From IMG/VR virus record IMGVR_UViG_3300044621_001247, positions 1 through 60,520 of that record: 60,520 nt of DNA; one strand, given 5' to 3'. Each line of letters begins with the position of its first letter. Position 1 is the stretch's first letter. Below are positions 43,562 to 50,902 of the stretch, piece after piece. Position numbers and translations under genes: made by a program. The notes below the pieces were generated by a model. It saw only the letters and a program-made list of their open reading frames with translations. It did no database searches and was not told where the DNA came from. Source of the stretch: a virus. Its lineage: Duplodnaviria; Caudoviricetes.

Positions 43562-43636
43562 GTGCCGTGGGAGGTCTTGGCATCCTCAGCCTGATTTATA
43601 AACAGGTAAGAACAGGTTCGATTCCTGTACGGCATA
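43562..43636 (+). tRNA. tRNA-Ile(TAT), atypical
   Basis: Acceptor GTGCCGT/ACGGCAT, D stem GAGG/CCTC, anticodon arm CCTGA-TTTATAA-ACAGG (A31:A39 mismatch), T arm ACAGG-TTCGATT-CCTGT. Confidence 0.8.
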
Positions 43637-43717
43637 CATCAACAACCGACCGTGCGCCATGTGGATCCACGCACGGTTCGGAGACTACAAGGATCCACTG
43701 ACTATGGAGACATCGAC

Positions 43718-44086
43718 ATGATTAGGTTTGTTACTGACAGCGAAAGAAGCGGCAAGAGCGTGACTGGTCTGCTTGCCCTCCTTTTCGGCATCGGCTTCTT
43801 CTGGTTCACCTTCCTCTCACCTGAGACGGTGAACTCTGCCACGAAGGCAAACTACTGCCTCGTCGCGGCTGCTTTGTCGTTCGCGGGATACCTGTGGTTC
43901 CGCCTTCAGGAGACGAAGGCATGGCTCGAAAGCGAGGAGAAGGGTCGCAACGATGACCGCAAGGAAAACTACAGCAACGAGTCCATCCGTGGTCTGCACG
44001 ACCGCATCGACCGCCTTGAGGAGCGTTCCAAGTGCAAGAACGGCGGCGGGTGCATGGCAGACAACGAAGACACATTCGGATTGTGA
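43718..44086 (+). CDS. Two-TM membrane protein
   Basis: SD GGAG; two hydrophobic helices and a charged C-terminus. Confidence 0.7.
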   Translation: MIRFVTDSERSGKSVTGLLALLFGIGFFWFTFLSPETVNSATKANYCLVAAALSFAGYLWFRLQETKAWLESEEKGRNDDRKENYSNESIRGLHDRIDRLEERSKCKNGGGCMADNEDTFGL

Positions 44087-44098
44087 GTCAAGTCCTGA

Positions 44099-44105
44099 CT
44101 AAATA
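44099..44105 (+). promoter_or_regulatory. Candidate late promoter (CTAAATA) upstream of the tRNA array
   Basis: Close match to T4 TATAAATA. Confidence 0.55.
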
Positions 44106-44178
44106 GGTTCCGTCCACCTACCTGGGGAAACGACAAGGACGGCAGAGGGGAGCGCATTCTGCGATAACGCTCTTTCGT

Positions 44179-44250
44179 GCGGATGTAACTCAGAGGTAGA
44201 GTCTCGGTTTTCCAAACCGATGGTCGTGGGTTCAAATCCCATCGTCCGCT
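44179..44250 (+). tRNA. tRNA-Gly(TCC)
   Basis: TCGGT-TTTCCAA-ACCGA anticodon arm; complete cloverleaf. Confidence 0.95.
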
Positions 44251-44251
44251 T

Positions 44252-44322
44252 TGCGAGTGAGTGAGACGGCAACACACTAGGCTCATAATCTAGGGAAATG
44301 GGTTCGACTCCCATACTCGCTA
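44252..44322 (+). tRNA. tRNA-Met/Ile2(CAT), atypical
   Basis: CTAGG-CTCATAA-TCTAG; T arm ATGGG-TTCGACT-CCCAT; 1:72 mismatch. Confidence 0.85.
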
Positions 44323-44324
44323 TT

Positions 44325-44398
44325 GTGACTGTAGAACAAATGGATAGTTCAGGAGATTGTGATTCTCCCCGTTGCGGGTTCAAGTCCCGCCAGTCACC
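44325..44398 (+). tRNA. tRNA-His(GTG)
   Basis: GGAGA-TTGTGAT-TCTCC; acceptor GTGACTG/CAGTCAC, C73. Confidence 0.93.
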
Positions 44399-44410
44399 CT
44401 CTGTGATAAC

Positions 44411-44481
44411 TGCCCGATTGTGTAATGGTAGCACCCGAGACTCTGATTCTCGTTGTCCTGGTTCGAGTCCAGGTTGGGCAA
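44411..44481 (+). tRNA. tRNA-Gln(CTG)
   Basis: CGAGA-CTCTGAT-TCTCG. Confidence 0.93.
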
Positions 44482-44488
44482 CTTTTCC

Positions 44489-44560
44489 GTGGGGATAACT
44501 CAGTAGGTAGAGTAGCGGACTGAAAATCCGTCAGCGAAGGTTCGATTCCTTCTCCTCACA
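44489..44560 (+). tRNA. tRNA-Phe(GAA)
   Basis: GCGGA-CTGAAAA-TCCGT. Confidence 0.94.
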
Positions 44561-44561
44561 T

Positions 44562-44632
44562 TGGTCTGTAGCACAACGGTAGTGCGCCGTCCTGTTAGGA
44601 CGGGGTTACAGGTTCAAATCCTGTCGGACCAG
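44562..44632 (+). tRNA. tRNA-Asn(GTT)
   Basis: CCGTC-CTGTTAG-GACGG, G73. Confidence 0.93.
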
Positions 44633-44633
44633 T

Positions 44634-44706
44634 TGGACTGTGGCTCAGTAGGCAGAGCATTCCCTTGATAAGGGAGAGGTCGTTGGTTCGATTCCAACCA
44701 GTCCTA
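44634..44706 (+). tRNA. tRNA-Ile(GAT)
   Basis: TTCCC-TTGATAA-GGGAG. Confidence 0.92.
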
Positions 44707-44712
44707 TTCGAC

Positions 44713-44795
44713 TGATCGTTTCCCGAGCAGCAAAGGGGAGAGTCTGTAAAACTCTTGGTCTTCGACCTTCGTAGGTGCAAGTCCTACACGATCAA
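44713..44795 (+). tRNA. tRNA-Tyr(GTA)
   Basis: AGAGT-CTGTAAA-ACTCT, long variable arm GGTC-TTC-GACC, T loop TGCAAGT. Confidence 0.88.
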
Positions 44796-44804
44796 CTTCA
44801 GAGA

Positions 44805-44878
44805 CGGGACATGGCTCAGTTTGGTAGAGCGTTCGCTTTGGGAGCGAGATGTCGCAGGTTCAAATCCTGCTGTCCCGA
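44805..44878 (+). tRNA. tRNA-Pro(TGG)
   Basis: TTCGC-TTTGGGA-GCGAG; CGG...CCGA acceptor. Confidence 0.95.
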
Positions 44879-44888
44879 TTGTGTGTCT

Positions 44889-44960
44889 GCCCTCATAGTA
44901 TAGCGGCTATTACCGTTGATTTGTAATCATCAGACCTCAGTTCGATTCTGAGTGGGGGCT
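44889..44960 (+). tRNA. tRNA-Thr(TGT)
   Basis: GTTGA-TTTGTAA-TCATC; GCC...GGCT acceptor. Confidence 0.92.
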
Positions 44961-44969
44961 TTCAAAAAC

Positions 44970-45101
44970 CTTCCTCTTGCCTGTAATGCGCAAAGGCTCA
45001 AGTAGAGGAGAAAATGGAGAACACCACTCCATTGTGGGTTTCGCGGAAAACGGATTGGGTACTTGCAAAGCCCTACCGAATGTTCCAAGGTTGTCCCACC
45101 A
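44970..45101 (+). ncRNA. Unidentified structured RNA within the tRNA array
   Basis: Three consecutive stem-loops; the last is closed by GTGGG/CCCAC and ends in CCA. Confidence 0.4.
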
Positions 45102-45105
45102 GTTC

Positions 45106-45179
45106 GGTCTAGTAGATTAGTTGGCTAAATCGTTGGACTTTCACTCCAAAGACCGTGGGTTCGACTCCCACCTAGATCA
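45106..45179 (+). tRNA. tRNA-Glu(TTC)
   Basis: TTGGA-CTTTCAC-TCCAA. Confidence 0.93.
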
Positions 45180-45186
45180 TTCTTCC

Positions 45187-45549
45187 ATGCCATGCTATGC
45201 AATCTCCATCCGTGAAGACACGCAGCACCTCCTCAAGGACGGCGGGGGATACCTCTTCTACAGGAAGAAGTCCCTTGCCGTCGAGGTCTGCGATGAGATG
45301 AATGCCCTGCGGAAGGGAATGAAACTGGAGCAGGTCTATTCGGTCTGCAAGGTGGACGAGAAGGATTGGAAGGGATACCCCTTCACATACGACAAGGAGT
45401 TCGATGATGACGGTTCCAGAGGAGATGTTCAACGCTATACGAAACGCACGGCACTTCATGCTGGCACTGATGGATCCAAAGCAGACTCCAAAGGTTCCAA
45501 GAGAAGTCCGAAAGAGGGCAAGGGACAGACTCAGGCACTTCCCTTCTGA
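45187..45549 (+). CDS. Hypothetical protein (start re-called after tRNA-Glu)
   Basis: MPCYAISIRED...; 3' part overlaps the next ORF. Confidence 0.55.
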   Translation: MPCYAISIREDTQHLLKDGGGYLFYRKKSLAVEVCDEMNALRKGMKLEQVYSVCKVDEKDWKGYPFTYDKEFDDDGSRGDVQRYTKRTALHAGTDGSKADSKGSKRSPKEGKGQTQALPF

Positions 45550-45751
45550 GTTCGACATCAGCGAGATGGAAAAGTTCCATGCCCTCAGGGATCAGGATCC
45601 AAACATCCTTTTCGGAGAGTGCATGAAGAGGCTTGACTCCATCCGTGGGGAGATTACCATAGCGGAGCGAAAGTTGAGCGATGTCGGCAACGACATCGTG
45701 ACCGCGATCAGGAACACCAGAGGAGGCAACGATGCCCAACAGCAAGGCTAG
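45404..45751 (+). CDS. Phage hypothetical protein
   Basis: MTVPEE...TPKVPREVRKRARDRLRHFP motif; SD AAGGAG. Confidence 0.72.
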   Translation: MMTVPEEMFNAIRNARHFMLALMDPKQTPKVPREVRKRARDRLRHFPSEFDISEMEKFHALRDQDPNILFGECMKRLDSIRGEITIAERKLSDVGNDIVTAIRNTRGGNDAQQQG

Positions 45752-45998
45752 GAATGTCGCGAGGAAGCACCGCAAGTCCAGGATTCGGTGGAAGAACAAG
45801 AACAAGGCAAGCCTGGCTCTAGCCAAGGACAAGGCATCGAAGCCCAAGAAGAAGGTCTCGGTGTTCGACAGGGCAAGGGCGGCACAGCAGAATGTTCCCC
45901 TGTCGGGGGCAACCCCGTCTGCCGTATCTAACCCGACAGGGGAACGCCGCACCGCTTCGATGATGACTTTCGACGAACTCAAGGCAACTGGAGGCTGA
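45732..45998 (+). CDS. Basic hypothetical protein
   Basis: SD GGAGG; Lys/Arg-rich. Confidence 0.65.
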   Translation: MPNSKARNVARKHRKSRIRWKNKNKASLALAKDKASKPKKKVSVFDRARAAQQNVPLSGATPSAVSNPTGERRTASMMTFDELKATGG

Positions 45999-45999
45999 G

Positions 46000-46269
46000 A
46001 TGGAAAAGACACAGATGGTCGAGTCCCTTCACCGTGGAATCTGCGAGGTGGTGTTCACCAAGGCAGACGGCACGGAGCGCACCATGAAATGCACACGGTC
46101 GCAGAGCCATGCTCCCATTTCCGTTCCCGCATCCAACCTCCTGACTGAGGACGGGTCGGTCGGACCCGATGTCATTCCCGTGTGGGATGTCGAGGCAGGG
46201 CAATGGAGGTCGTTCAACGCGAAGTCGGTGAAGTCCTTCCGCTCCGTTGGTTCGTTGCTGAACGGATGA
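46000..46269 (+). CDS. WYL_2 / Sm-like SH3 beta-barrel protein
   Basis: V.FTKADGTERTM.CT...VWDVE...WRSF motif. Confidence 0.82.
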   Translation: MEKTQMVESLHRGICEVVFTKADGTERTMKCTRSQSHAPISVPASNLLTEDGSVGPDVIPVWDVEAGQWRSFNAKSVKSFRSVGSLLNG

Positions 46270-46276
46270 GCGAGTC

Positions 46277-46540
46277 GCCCCTCTAACTCAATGGTAGAGT
46301 AACGGACTTTCAAATGGAACTGCCGTGCAGGAATGCACGGATCGAATCTTGTCAAAGTCGGTGAACTCCCTGTCGAAAGACGAGACAACGCCGAGCCAAG
46401 CGCAGCGATGCGAAGGTGTAGAGACTTGACGGCAAGCACCCAGAACGGGTGAAGGCAAAGTCCAGACCACGAACGGAAGGCGGCGAAAGCCGAAGTGGTA
46501 GGTAATCCGTCAGTTGTGGGTTCGAGTCCCACGGGGGGTA
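46277..46540 (+). tRNA. tRNA-Lys(TTT) split by a group I intron (exons 46277-46310 and 46503-46540)
   Basis: Joined exons give GCCCCTC...ACGGA-CTTTTAA-TCCGT...GTGGG-TTCGAGT-CCCAC-GGGGGGT-A. Confidence 0.9.
46311..46502 (+). ncRNA. Group I intron (IC3-like, 192 nt, no ORF)
   Basis: P (CAAAGTCGGTGAA), Q (AACGCCGAGCCAAG), R (GGTGTAGAGACTTGACG) and S (GAAGGCAAAGTCC) core elements; follows U and ends in G; P1 guide TGGAA. Confidence 0.93.
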
Positions 46541-46544
46541 TTGC

Positions 46545-46626
46545 GCCAGCGTGGCGGAATGGCATACGCAGGATGCTCAAAACATCCGGATCCTAGATCG
46601 TGCAGGTTCGACTCCTGTCGCTGGTA
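46545..46626 (+). tRNA. tRNA-Leu(CAA)
   Basis: GGATG-CTCAAAA-CATCC, long variable arm. Confidence 0.94.
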
Positions 46627-46638
46627 TTGGAGGAACAC

Positions 46639-47010
46639 ATGCAGACACAGAACATGACCAAGACAGAACTCATCGAAAACATCGAAATCCTCGCGGAAAA
46701 GTGCGAGAAGTTGATCGCCGAACTCGCGCAGCGCACCGCCGCTCTTGATCAAATGACGGTTCACCGCAATGCGACGATAGAACATCGAGACATCACGCAG
46801 CAGGTGCTAAACGGTATCACCGTTGCGTTATCTCAGCGCACCGCCGACCTCGCCCGCGTGACCGCCGAGCGCGACGAGGCGCGGCGGTGGGTGTGCAGAA
46901 AGACGGTCTACGCAGAAAGGAAACCCCACGATTTGGTTGATTCCACCGAAGCAAAGGTTCTCCTCGAAGCACAGATGCGCGGCTGGGACTGCTTCGCAAA
47001 GGAGGGGTGA
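46639..47010 (+). CDS. Coiled-coil hypothetical protein (TAERDEARR...RGWDCF family)
   Basis: SD GGAGG; shares DNA blocks with the next ORF. Confidence 0.75.
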   Translation: MQTQNMTKTELIENIEILAEKCEKLIAELAQRTAALDQMTVHRNATIEHRDITQQVLNGITVALSQRTADLARVTAERDEARRWVCRKTVYAERKPHDLVDSTEAKVLLEAQMRGWDCFAKEG

Positions 47011-47303
47011 TGAGCGACTTCCCCGAGATCACCACCGAGCAGATCGTGGCTCGTCTCCGCATGATCGTCGCAGAGCCAGATTCGCTCTGCAAGACCGACA
47101 TTCACTACATAGAGGACGCTGCTGACGAACTGGAGAGCAAGGGCGACGAGATCGCCCGCCTCACCGCCGAGCGCGACGAGGCGCGGCGGGAACTCTGCCA
47201 GTTGAAGTCACGATTGGGAGCGGACTACTACGTTCCATCATTGAATCCCGAGGGTTACGCCAAAGTGCGCGGCTGGGACTGCTTCGAGGAGGAAGGCAAG
47301 TGA
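47007..47303 (+). CDS. Hypothetical protein (TAERDEARR...RGWDCF family)
   Basis: GTGA-coupled paralogue of the previous ORF. Confidence 0.75.
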   Translation: MMSDFPEITTEQIVARLRMIVAEPDSLCKTDIHYIEDAADELESKGDEIARLTAERDEARRELCQLKSRLGADYYVPSLNPEGYAKVRGWDCFEEEGK

Positions 47304-47548
47304 GCAACAAACCAGACATCGTGCATAGACTAGAGCGACAACCGCTATTCGTCACCCACGAAACATTCGGCAATCCTGTTTGCTGCGTGATGACGAGCGA
47401 GACTTGCAAAATGAATCAAGAGGAGCGCATGGAGGCTGCATCGGAGATCAAACGCCTCCGCGCCGACCTCGAGAAAGTTCGCACAGAGCGCGACCAAGCG
47501 TTGTGGGAATCAACACAGGACTTCTGGGGAAAGACAAGTGACTACTGA
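47300..47548 (+). CDS. Hypothetical protein (DIV.RL...EAA.EI.RLR type)
   Basis: GTGA-coupled. Confidence 0.7.
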   Translation: MSNKPDIVHRLERQPLFVTHETFGNPVCCVMTSETCKMNQEERMEAASEIKRLRADLEKVRTERDQALWESTQDFWGKTSDY

Positions 47549-47939
47549 AACATGGATCTTCATCGGCATCGGCATCTCACTGGTCTTGAACACCTACATG
47601 ATCCTTTCGTACTACTGGGTTCATCAGATGACATCGAGGGTGAACGACCTTGAACGGAATCTGCTCACTCACGGCAAGGGACTTGACGACCTCTCCAGAA
47701 GGATTTACAACCTTGAGCGGCAATCCGAATATCTCACATACCAATTGAGCCTCCACGGCAACAGCATTGCAACCCTGAAGCCACTGACCGACTACTTCGA
47801 GCACAAGAACAGGATGCAAGCAAAAACCAAACTTGCCGAACAGGATGAGTCTAAGATTGCAAAAGCAAAGAAACAGAAGGAAGAGGATGAGGCAAGACTC
47901 GCGGAACTGAAGAAGGAATTGGAAGGACTATTCAAGTGA
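47538..47939 (+). CDS. Membrane-anchored coiled-coil protein
   Basis: N-terminal TM helix, then heptad repeats. Confidence 0.7.
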   Translation: MTTETWIFIGIGISLVLNTYMILSYYWVHQMTSRVNDLERNLLTHGKGLDDLSRRIYNLERQSEYLTYQLSLHGNSIATLKPLTDYFEHKNRMQAKTKLAEQDESKIAKAKKQKEEDEARLAELKKELEGLFK

Positions 47940-48217
47940 AGCAGAACGAAGACCTCAAGTTCATCATCCACTTTGACCATGACTTCAGCAAGGAAATGTC
48001 GGAACAGATCGGCAACCACATCAAACAGCAATGGGAGAGTGGGATCATGGTCTTTCCGAATACTGTGTGCAGAGTGGTGATCATCGACAAGCATGGAGAT
48101 GCGAAGTACGAGTGGACTCGCCCCAAGGAGGTGATCATCGGTTCTCCCCCCAAGGAGGAAGAAAAGTCCTGGTTCAAGGAGGAAGAAAAGTCCTGGTTCT
48201 CTCGCTTGTTCTCGTAG
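47936..48217 (+). CDS. Hypothetical protein
   Basis: GTGA-coupled; C-terminal KEEEKSWF x2. Confidence 0.65.
   Translation: MKQNEDLKFIIHFDHDFSKEMSEQIGNHIKQQWESGIMVFPNTVCRVVIIDKHGDAKYEWTRPKEVIIGSPPKEEEKSWFKEEEKSWFSRLFS
48151..48198 (+). repeat. Perfect 24-nt tandem duplication
   Basis: CAAGGAGGAAGAAAAGTCCTGGTT x2. Confidence 0.97.
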
Positions 48218-48230
48218 GGGTTGAACTTTG

Positions 48231-48237
48231 CTAAATA
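48231..48237 (+). promoter_or_regulatory. Candidate late promoter (CTAAATA)
   Basis: 20 nt upstream of the ATG at 48258, followed by SD GAGGAG. Confidence 0.6.
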
Positions 48238-48257
48238 TCTCCACAGAGGAGATTTCC

Positions 48258-48791
48258 ATGAAGACATACAGAGAGTTCGTAGCAGAGGCAGCATCCCGTT
48301 CCCTTTCCCGCCTACACGGTCACCTACAGGCAGGGCATATGGTGGGGTTCATCTCCGCAAGCCGTGGGAATCTTTCTCCTGCCGAGAACAACAAGAGGAC
48401 GAAGGAACTGCACAAGAGCCTCAAGGGGCATGGCTTTACCCCCGTCCCCGTCAAGGGCGAGTACATCGAAGACCACAATGGAGAGAAGAAGAAGGTAAAG
48501 GAGAAGACCTTCATGATCCATTCGGGTCAACTTTACGGTCATGCAGAGAATCCCACGAATGCGCATCGCGAGACGCTTCGCACCTTGAAGACGCTAGGAG
48601 CGCAGCATGATCAAGACACCGTCCTCACCGTCTCCAAGAAGCACGGCAGCGTGTTCCACGGCACGGGCAAGTCGGACTGGGTTCCGAAGGGCAAGAGGGC
48701 GCGTATCGGCGGTGCTGGAATCAGCACGAATGTTGGCGACTTCAACACTCGGTTGAAGGGCAAGAAGTTCATAGTAGGTGGAGGAGACTGA
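48258..48791 (+). CDS. Putative internal head protein with T4-type capsid-targeting sequence
   Basis: N-terminus MKTYREFVAE versus T4 IP CTS MKTYQEFIAE; body has ISASRG...EN..R...GEY.E...EK.F...QD.VL. Confidence 0.72.
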   Translation: MKTYREFVAEAASRSLSRLHGHLQAGHMVGFISASRGNLSPAENNKRTKELHKSLKGHGFTPVPVKGEYIEDHNGEKKKVKEKTFMIHSGQLYGHAENPTNAHRETLRTLKTLGAQHDQDTVLTVSKKHGSVFHGTGKSDWVPKGKRARIGGAGISTNVGDFNTRLKGKKFIVGGGD

Positions 48792-50194: not shown

Positions 50195-50554
50195 ATGTAC
50201 ATAACCAGCCTTCTCACTCTTCAGAACCAACTTCGCATATTCCATTGGCAGACCACATCGTATGCGGAGCATGAGGCATTCGGAAAGGCATACGGAGATC
50301 TAGGAGACCTGATCGACACATTCATCGAGACGATGATGGGAAAGAAGGGGAGGATCCTCTCCAGCGGTGGATTCAGCATCCACCTCACCAACTACCGCGA
50401 GACTGATCCCGTGGCATTCCTCAAGCAGTACGATACCTACCTCACATCGCTGGACGACGAGTTGTTGGAAGGAGACACGGAACTCAAGAACATCAGGGAC
50501 GAGATGAAGGGCGTGGTGAACCACACAATCTACCTGCTCACCCTCAACAAGTGA
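50195..50554 (+). CDS. Ferritin/Dps-like four-helix protein
   Basis: FHWQT.SYAEH.A...Y..L..LID.F.E...G...NIRDEM...YLLTL. Confidence 0.82.
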   Translation: MYITSLLTLQNQLRIFHWQTTSYAEHEAFGKAYGDLGDLIDTFIETMMGKKGRILSSGGFSIHLTNYRETDPVAFLKQYDTYLTSLDDELLEGDTELKNIRDEMKGVVNHTIYLLTLNK

Positions 50555-50832
50555 GCAAACGACATCGTTGATCTTTGCATACTACCTGGTCACACGGGGG
50601 TTCGATACCCCCCGACTCCATTCAAACCTACGGGGTCGAACTGGAATCGACGGCTAGATGTTCGCAACAGGGAGATGTCCGAGAGGTCGCTGACAACCCT
50701 CGTAAAATCCCAATGTCGGCAACCATAAACGCCGCGAACATGCGGATGGCTGCTTGAAGCAGTGGGGTCCGATCCACCCGCGACTGAACGGATCATCGGC
50801 ACAGGGTCTCCGAAAGGAGGCTTTGTGCTTTT
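50555..50832 (+). ncRNA. ssrA: Circularly permuted (two-piece) tmRNA
   Basis: T arm GGGGG-TTCGATA-CCCCC plus CGACTCC-A (50596-50620) precedes GGGGTCG-AACTGGAATCGAC (50632). The acceptor stem has G3:U70. Tag ORF 50719-50757 encodes ATINAANMRMAA*. Outer ends are approximate. Confidence 0.9.
50799..50832 (+). terminator. Intrinsic terminator ending the tmRNA coding piece
   Basis: GCACAGGGTCTCC-GAAA-GGAGGCTTTGTGC-TTTT. Confidence 0.75.
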
Positions 50833-50902
50833 CGGGAAGCCATAGATAGCCATGTACCCGTGATAGTTTCAGAATGGAGTCACCATCATGGAGCAGCCCC
50901 CT

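Follow-up and report, generated by a model that had tools for sequence, protein, structure and literature searches.

A predicted group I intron in a tRNA-Lys(UUU) gene of a T4-like phage contig, and its relatives in viral tRNA genes

The stretch of DNA analysed here, referred to throughout as the window, is a 60.5-kb virus record of IMG/VR (IMGVR_UViG_3300044621_001247; 60,520 nucleotides) with an estimated completeness of ~34%, and carries at 46277-46540 a tRNA-Lys(UUU) gene that is split in its anticodon loop by an insert of 192 nt. Its limits, its exon ends and the G that closes the insert had been proposed in an earlier note made from the letters of the sequence, and all are correct: exon 1 finishes with ACGGACTTT at 46310, exon 2 starts with TAATCCGT at 46503, and the insert between them ends in G46502. 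When introns are allowed, ARAGORN draws a single cloverleaf across the locus, whose anticodon loop is interrupted by an intron of ~190 nt; no gene at 46277-46540 is called by default ARAGORN or by the tRNA model of Rfam, in line with the suspicion of the earlier note that standard annotation overlooks it. The placement of introns by ARAGORN and its isotype labels (e.g. 'SeC tca') are arbitrary, and were replaced by an enumeration of junctions having U at position -1 and G at the last intron position (omega). Based on the sequence comparisons presented below, we consider it very likely that the locus represents a functional phage tRNA-Lys(UUU) gene, interrupted between U35 and U36 by an IC3-like group I intron without an open reading frame (ORF). 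The coordinates of all features are collected in Table 1.

Joining 46310 to 46503 results in the seven-nucleotide loop CUUUUAA, which has U33, the anticodon UUU and a purine at position 37, while exon 2 contributes a 5-nt variable loop and the discriminator A46540, the CCA end not being encoded. In E. coli, U35 and A73 are identity elements for lysyl-tRNA synthetase; U35 and the discriminator A46540 are both present in the split tRNA sequence, and the spliced product would be charged with lysine. A pattern search with the 3' junction retrieved five more viral contigs with the same type of gene (L052, L188, L214, L191 and L197), and base pairs were counted in these together with the window, making six Lys(UUU) pre-tRNAs. 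In the tRNA part, pairs are formed in 100% of the cells of the acceptor, D and T stems and in 96.7% of those of the anticodon stem, with compensatory changes in all four. The tRNA is under selection, since five of the seven acceptor-stem pairs have changed on both sides and yet keep pairing.

Within the window alone, the junction can be read in two ways: U35 with G46502 (Lys-UUU) and U34 with G46501 (Thr-UGU) both combine a U at -1 with a G at omega and a seven-nucleotide loop, and their stem scores are equal. An intron at 46310-46501, spliced at 34/35 to give a tRNA-Thr(UGU), has a precedent in another viral contig, L021, whose Thr(UGU) gene is interrupted at 34/35, but is exceedingly improbable once the relatives are taken into account. 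In an alignment of 59 distinct viral tRNA introns (taken from the core-motif set described below, the window and its close relative excluded), the last intron column is G in every row, and position 46502, not 46501, falls into this column because the window's ...GTGGTAGG aligns with the family's ...GTGGTAAG. L052, L191 and L197 read ...TAAG/TAATC, where an A precedes the terminal G, so that an intron end one base earlier, and thus the Thr reading, is impossible in these contigs. The helix P1 for U34 would comprise merely two exon pairs, while U35 is the sole 5' choice that gives a seven-nucleotide loop once exon 2 is fixed, its wobble with G being kept in all six Lys(UUU) pre-tRNAs. Moreover, an intact Thr(UGU) gene, the one to which the earlier note had pointed at 44889, is already present in the window.

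The exon-1 motif has 93 matches in viral contigs including the window, and 78 of these run straight from ...GGACTTT into TAATCCG as an uninterrupted Lys(UUU) gene; the remainder consists of four with the intron, nine Gln(UUG)-like sequences and two others. Default ARAGORN calls the uninterrupted homologues tRNA-Lys(ttt) in the six contigs checked. One contig, L235, is syntenic with both L052 and the window, sharing ORFs on both sides of the tRNA, and its flanks are 77-84% identical to those of L052. The tRNA of L235 is nearly identical to that of L052 but has no intron; the alignment of the two alleles shows one sharply bounded difference, of 191 nt, which lies exactly between GGACTTT and TAATCCGT at a position that cannot slide. 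Intron-less and intron-bearing alleles, for which a search had been suggested, are thus both found, and the intron-less ones read CTTT-TAATCC, against the Thr reading. Because of the 59-intron alignment, the A before the terminal G in the relatives, the uninterrupted homologues and the allele of L235, the junction is placed at 35/36 with UUU as the predicted anticodon, which was also the preference of the earlier note over Thr(UGU).

That the insert is a group I intron, as had been claimed, is supported by family-invariant columns, by covariation and by an Rfam match that stays below the gathering score. The Rfam model Intron_gpI (RF00028) aligns with 46299-46482 over its whole length (model positions 1-253) at 31.7 bits (E = 2e-6 for the local stretch); when the whole window is compared with all 4227 families, the match has E = 2.8e-4 and is the sole one of this kind. 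A 22-nt core motif (46413-46434, spanning J6/7-P7-J7/3-P3') is found exactly in at least 117 IMG/VR contigs, and among the matches listed ARAGORN places tRNA halves on both sides of the motif in 105 of 118 regions. The window intron aligns full length with the viral Leu(UAA), Met, Lys(CUU) and Thr introns and agrees with all 63 invariant columns of the 59-intron alignment, 21 of which are the search motif itself and hence invariant by construction. Outside L052 and the other Lys introns, its identity to the nearest relatives is only ~60%. Since the four classical types of tRNA intron in bacteria are classed as IC3 in the intron database (Williams 2020, bioRxiv 10.1101/2020.01.27.920355), and since the window intron aligns with viral Leu(UAA) 34/35 introns, it is tentatively designated IC3-like.

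The secondary structure, helices P1 to P9 plus the cloverleaf, was drawn on the window sequence. In the six Lys(UUU) pre-tRNAs, 97.6% of 423 cells hold standard pairs, as compared to 35-40% when the partners are slid by one to three columns. Compensatory changes are seen in 28 of 73 pairs, and the observed values were reached by none of 500 shuffles. Besides the acceptor stem, the compensation concerns P2 (six of seven pairs), P3, P4, P6a, P8 and P9a. The P1 proposed in the earlier note (U33-A, U34-A, U35·G and C+1-G) is present, with all four pairs identical in the six sequences, and is therefore supported by conservation and not by covariation; in L191 and L197, P1 gains a C32-G pair.

Table 1. 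Coordinates of the split tRNA-Lys(UUU) gene, the helices of its predicted group I intron and other tRNA genes of the window. Percentages are paired cells in the six Lys(UUU) pre-tRNAs.
Feature	Coordinates	Strand	Evidence and remarks
tRNA array	43562-46626		Default ARAGORN and Rfam
Intact tRNA-Thr(UGU)	44889-44960		Default ARAGORN
tRNA-Lys(UUU) exon 1	46277-46310	+	Acceptor 5' strand, D arm, anticodon stem 5' strand, loop C32 U33 U34 U35; ARAGORN -i
P1 hairpin	46308-46319	+	U33-A46319, U34-A46318, U35·G46317 wobble at 5' splice site, C46311-G46316
Group I intron, 192 nt, no ORF, tRNA-intron (IC3-like) type	46311-46502	+	Rfam RF00028, family-invariant columns, covariation, presence/absence in L052 versus L235
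Internal guide sequence	46316-46319	+	Read from the sequence
P2, 7 bp, GGAA loop	46323-46340	+	6 of 7 pairs changed on both sides in six sequences
P3, 5' strand	46348-46353	+	Partner 46431-46436; 2 compensatory pairs, 86.7% paired
P4	46358-46363 with 46389-46394	+	Encloses P5; 100% paired, 2 compensatory pairs
P5, GAAA loop	46371-46374 with 46379-46382	+	66.7% paired
P6	46395-46397 with 46415-46417	+	100% paired
P6a, GCGA loop	46401-46404 with 46409-46412	+	100% paired, 2 compensatory pairs
P7, 5' strand	46421 and 46423-46426	+	A46422 bulged; 5 pairs, invariant in 6 of 6, 100% paired
P3, 3' strand	46431-46436	+	After P7 5' strand and J7/3
P8, unusually small, 5 bp, 5-nt loop	46437-46451	+	100% paired; 1 compensatory pair (C-G to U-A in L188 and L214)
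P7, 3' strand	46459-46463	+	Pseudoknot with 46421-46426
P9	46467-46470 with 46495-46498	+	100% paired
P9a, GAAA loop	46481-46484 with 46489-46492	+	100% paired, 3 compensatory pairs
Terminal G (omega G)	46502	+	G in 59 of 59 viral tRNA introns and 6 of 6 Lys introns
tRNA-Lys(UUU) exon 2	46503-46540	+	U36 A37 A38, anticodon stem 3' strand, T arm, acceptor 3' strand; ARAGORN -i
tRNA-Leu(CAA)	46545-46626	+	4 nt 3' of the split tRNA-Lys; ARAGORN and Rfam

Several observations weigh against the interpretation of the locus as a functional, self-splicing tRNA gene. In the covariance-model check put forward in the earlier note, the full-length alignment with Intron_gpI (E = 2.8e-4) stands, but the score of 31.7 bits lies below the curated gathering score of 50; the 12 seed sequences of Rfam include no bacterial one, and matches have been accepted from 18-20 bits (Williams 2020, bioRxiv 10.1101/2020.01.27.920355). 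The window P1 consists of just three exon pairs and one intron pair, with C32 opposite C46320, and P10 has at most two base pairs (U36·G and A37-U) and is missing in L191. P5 is poorly supported, being hard to align, with gaps in three rows and only two thirds of its cells paired (66.7%). Folding by minimum free energy barely beats shuffled sequences (z = -1.86; 13 of 200 shuffles did equally well). The covariation set of six sequences contains a pair of near-duplicates, L188 and L214, and the structure was derived from the window's own row, which favours it over the slid controls. BLAST searches with the short exons against annotated phage tRNAs are only weakly informative: exon 1 matches six records (three tRNA-Lys, two of which are from the same phage, one tRNA-Gln and two unannotated), and the matches of exon 2 are spread over many isotypes. 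Finally, no RNA run is found among the sequencing runs that match 45000-48000.

Some of these points, namely the lack of an RNA run among the matches, the Rfam score below gathering and the short P1 and P10, together with the minimal P8 and a hairpin inside P9 that is 2 nt shorter than in L188 and L197, also speak for a decayed remnant that no longer splices, in which case the gene would be a tRNA pseudogene. We regard this as quite unlikely, since the intron keeps all 63 family-invariant positions, and intron and exon helices alike maintain their pairing by compensatory changes across diverged copies. No other tRNA-Lys gene was called by default ARAGORN in the window, which represents ~34% of the genome. 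Furthermore, the intron-bearing allele is the sole form in four lake metagenome runs from different studies, where identical contigs bridge the site.

DNA near-identical to the window stretch occurs in many lake-water metagenome runs, and four of these DNA runs were examined over 45500-47500 for an intron-less allele. None was found there: only intron-bearing contigs bridge the site and no joint spans 46311-46502, the three joints that were listed lying elsewhere and having short sides. Run X14 contains a variant resembling L052 (a T inserted behind 46291, A>T at 46302). A spike in read depth at 46371-46437 corresponds to the conserved cores of other introns.

By homology with characterised tRNA group I introns, a functional intron in the tRNA-Lys(UUU) gene would most likely be spliced as follows. 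The gene would be transcribed jointly with the adjacent tRNA-Leu(CAA) gene. In the transcript, U33-U35 would pair with the guide nucleotides G46317, A46318 and A46319 to form P1, in which the U35·G46317 wobble would mark the 5' splice site. A free external guanosine, bound in P7, would then attack after U35; G46502 would subsequently take over the site in P7, and the 3'-OH of U35 would attack before U36 (46503), creating the loop CUUUUAA. The exons would be held together by the anticodon stem (46302-46306 with 46506-46510) more than by the weak P10 of 1-2 bp.

In the simplest view, the intron is a passenger, either selfish or neutral, whose splicing makes it tolerable to the phage; it is present or absent among related phages and resides in several tRNA genes. 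The earlier note had instead suggested that it conceals the anticodon loop until splicing from nucleases of the PrrC or PARIS type, and in a broader form the intron might be kept for the benefit of the phage, either by masking the precursor anticodon from host nucleases or by tying the supply of tRNA-Lys to GTP/Mg2+ and the timing of infection. tRNA-Lys(UUU) is indeed a known target of the anticodon nuclease PrrC. A putative S-adenosylmethionine lyase family gene, possibly involved in anti-restriction, is located 1.7 kb downstream of the split gene, and phage tRNAs have been proposed to serve in counter-defence (PMC10264068). Nevertheless, a benefit of this kind appears very doubtful and the masking claim is unsupported: the spliced loop is the canonical CUUUUAA, so that the mature tRNA would be unprotected; the family has no tie to Lys(UUU), residing mainly in Leu(UAA) genes (74 of the 118 listed regions), with other members in genes for Met, Asn, Lys(CUU), Thr and Arg tRNAs; and the close relative L235 as well as 78 of the 93 homologous viral matches are without an intron.

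The contig hosting the split gene is considered genuine phage DNA of the T4-like type because genes for a T4-type baseplate hub, a tail tube and a large terminase are encoded on it; the large terminase is ~58% identical to those of Synechococcus cyanomyoviruses and of the Methylophilales phage Melnitz. Downstream of the tRNA array, ARAGORN and Rfam detect one more tRNA-Arg gene and a permuted transfer-messenger RNA (tmRNA). This two-piece tmRNA (50530-50848, plus strand) scores 57.1 bits with the Rfam model tmRNA_permuted, has the predicted tag peptide AANMRMAA (ARAGORN), and is in part also recognised by the tmRNA model for Betaproteobacteria (36.3 bits, E = 9.7e-8). The tmRNA match and the terminase similarity to a Methylophilales phage together hint at a freshwater betaproteobacterial host. 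A tRNA-Ile(UAU) gene at 43562-43637 (plus strand) has a low Rfam score of 32.4 bits and is positioned apart from the main array, and a tRNA-Ile(GAU) gene is also present in the window, at 44633.

The split tRNA-Lys gene and the tRNA-Leu(CAA) gene are probably co-transcribed, and the same order, Lys followed by Leu(CAA), is found in the intron-less relative L235. On the other side, an ORF on the plus strand (46000-46269) encoding a small WYL_2 protein (Sm-like SH3 barrel) stops 8 nt 5' of the split tRNA, and has a homologue upstream of the tRNA-Lys gene in L052, L235, L188 and L214. The downstream ORF 48228-48791 (plus strand), which encodes the S-adenosylmethionine lyase family domain (Pfam PF23780, 3.7e-13), could serve an anti-restriction function in this tRNA-rich region. 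No endonuclease gene was found among the ten ORFs checked around the split tRNA.

The viral relatives of the window intron occupy a range of tRNA genes. Among the 118 core-motif regions listed, 74 are Leu(UAA) genes split at 34/35, followed by Met(CAU) at 33/34 (nine regions) and at 36/37 (eight), and Lys(CUU) at 35/36 (two, L009 and L072). Rarer are Thr(UGU) at 34/35 (one), Arg(UCU) (one clear and one ambiguous case) and Ile(UAU) (one); 13 of the listed regions have no split tRNA and the others are ambiguous. Asn(GUU) genes split at 35/36 were identified in 11 further viral regions. The viral Lys(CUU) and Asn(GUU) introns belong to the same family as the window intron, use the same 35/36 site and are followed by an exon 2 starting with UAAUC; the guide sequences of the viral Lys(CUU), Asn(GUU) and Leu(UAA) introns fit their own anticodons. 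An exact search of the viral contigs with the 5' junction of the window retrieved only L052. In a quick maximum-likelihood tree of 87 introns, from which ambiguous rows and any intron above 235 nt were excluded, the window intron groups with L052, L188 and L197 (support of 93 in the Shimodaira-Hasegawa-like approximate likelihood ratio test, SH-aLRT), while the Lys intron of L191 groups with the Asn introns (95). Because L191 groups apart from the other Lys introns, the Lys site seems to have been occupied at least twice.

Sequenced phages provide further cases. A BLAST search with a Leu-type viral intron led to the cultured jumbo phage Atu_ph07 of Agrobacterium (MF403008.1, ~112890-113251; region L309, 660-1021), where ARAGORN, once introns are permitted, recovers a tRNA-Leu(UAA) gene interrupted at 34/35 by a group I intron of 278 nt, in a gap without a GenBank feature. 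When the whole locus of the window was compared with GenBank phages, the only match was a partial one, to the tRNA-Leu intron of an uncultured phage of 595 kb, and a megablast of 12 kb returned a tRNA-Pro match only. In that 595-kb phage (LR756511.1, ~409215-409330; L002), the 3' half of a related intron precedes an exon 2 that resembles tRNA-Leu(UAA), and the 5' part differs; no complete split tRNA was found within 1.2 kb by ARAGORN with introns allowed, and this intron may be longer or carry an ORF. A Leu-type query also matches (74% over 155 nt) inside an annotated capsid protein gene of Pelagibacter phage HTVC120P (MH598807.1, 19653-19807), an indication that a structural gene, too, contains a related group I intron.

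Other regions deviate from the simple pattern. Three viral contigs contain two copies of an Asn-type intron 3' end plus exon 2 at a distance of ~509 nt (L057, 326-348 and 835-857; L193, 10523-10545 and 11031-11053; L218, 9234-9256 and 9743-9765); in every pair, a split tRNA-Asn(GUU) gene could be made out for a single copy only, and the other may be a duplicated gene or one with a longer intron. The IMG/VR region L104 contains a split tRNA with an insert of ~330 nt, for whose ends no junction combining U at -1 with G at omega fits cleanly. Searches of bacterial genomes and metagenomes with the pattern of the tiny P8 retrieved mainly fMet introns at 33/34 and no new Lys case, L153 being the same contig as L052. 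In the GTDB regions L120-L146, the tiny-P8 core occurs in split fMet(CAU) 33/34 genes of metagenome-assembled genomes (MAGs) labelled Anaerolineae, Patescibacteria, Omnitrophota, Deltaproteobacteria and Desulforudis, plus one Woesearchaeota; for 11 of these 27 regions ARAGORN gave no split tRNA.

Textbooks place phage group I introns in protein genes and bacterial ones in tRNA and rRNA genes, and the tRNA arrays of phages would now be added as hosts of the 'bacterial' type. According to the earlier note, introns at 35/36 have also been reported for the Asn and Asp tRNAs of Patescibacteria; a literature search retrieved no such report. Taking the viral regions together, there are about even chances that group I introns form a common and overlooked part of phage tRNA genes, distributed over eight or more tRNA/site classes (34/35 in Leu-UAA and Thr-UGU; 33/34 and 36/37 in Met-CAU; 35/36 in Lys-UUU, Lys-CUU and Asn-GUU; and Arg-UCU) and found in well over 100 contigs of IMG/VR and at least one cultured jumbo phage, that they have been gained, lost and moved between tRNAs sharing U/UAAUC, and that the Lys(UUU) 35/36 class is new in print. 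If so, this would run against the 2014 review of Hausner et al., which states that all phage introns known by then were in protein genes, despite the many phage tRNA genes, and with which the remark of the earlier note that phage group I introns typically reside in protein genes agrees. Our literature searches, which did not extend to supplements or to the table of Williams 2020 that possibly lists a Lys class, turned up no group I intron reported from a phage tRNA gene or from a tRNA-Lys gene.

Default tRNA finders miss such split genes, as they do here, and that of Atu_ph07 is unannotated in GenBank; because of this, phage tRNA complements, and the arguments on codon usage and counter-defence that are built on them, are incomplete, and if the introns are indeed common, phage tRNA repertoires would be systematically under-counted. 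The presence and absence of the intron in L052 and L235, together with the two lineages at the Lys site, offer a tractable system for the spread of ORF-less introns. With lengths of 181-192 nt and a P8 of 5 bp, these introns count among the smaller group I introns found in nature, and might be of use as minimal ribozymes.

When compared with known systems, the intron is of a kind already familiar from bacterial tRNA genes and reveals no new mechanism; what is new is its occurrence in a phage and, possibly, the interruption of a Lys(UUU) gene. In bacteria, the known tRNA group I introns have been extended from four to 21 tRNA/site classes (Williams 2020, bioRxiv 10.1101/2020.01.27.920355), starting from the classical sites Leu.3Ug, fMet.2Ug, Arg.5Ug and Ile2.5Ug, i.e. 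Leu(UAA) 34/35, fMet 33/34, and Arg(CCU) and Ile2(CAU) 36/37, which are those listed in the earlier note. Like the window intron, they are small (~190-250 nt), ORF-less and located in the anticodon loop, and possess a U at -1 that wobbles in P1, a terminal G and the same conserved core; the tiny-P8 variant of this core is shared with fMet introns in MAGs of Anaerolineae, Patescibacteria and Deltaproteobacteria. The window intron differs from them in its host gene, tRNA-Lys(UUU), in its site, 35/36 ('Lys.4Ug' in the naming of Williams), and in its T4-like phage genome. A tRNA group I intron at 36/37 resembles it in the compact P1-P9 fold, the peripheral GNRA loops, the position in the anticodon loop and probably also the sequence; in contrast, the window intron is inserted at 35/36, has another guide sequence and a smaller P8 (5 bp with a 5-nt loop). 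The group I introns of phage protein genes (T4 td, nrdB and sunY; those of Bastille and of Twort-like phages; PMC3984707, PMC11878797) are mostly of the IA type and often associated with homing endonuclease genes, whereas the window intron is found in a tRNA gene, contains no ORF and has no endonuclease gene among its ten neighbouring ORFs.

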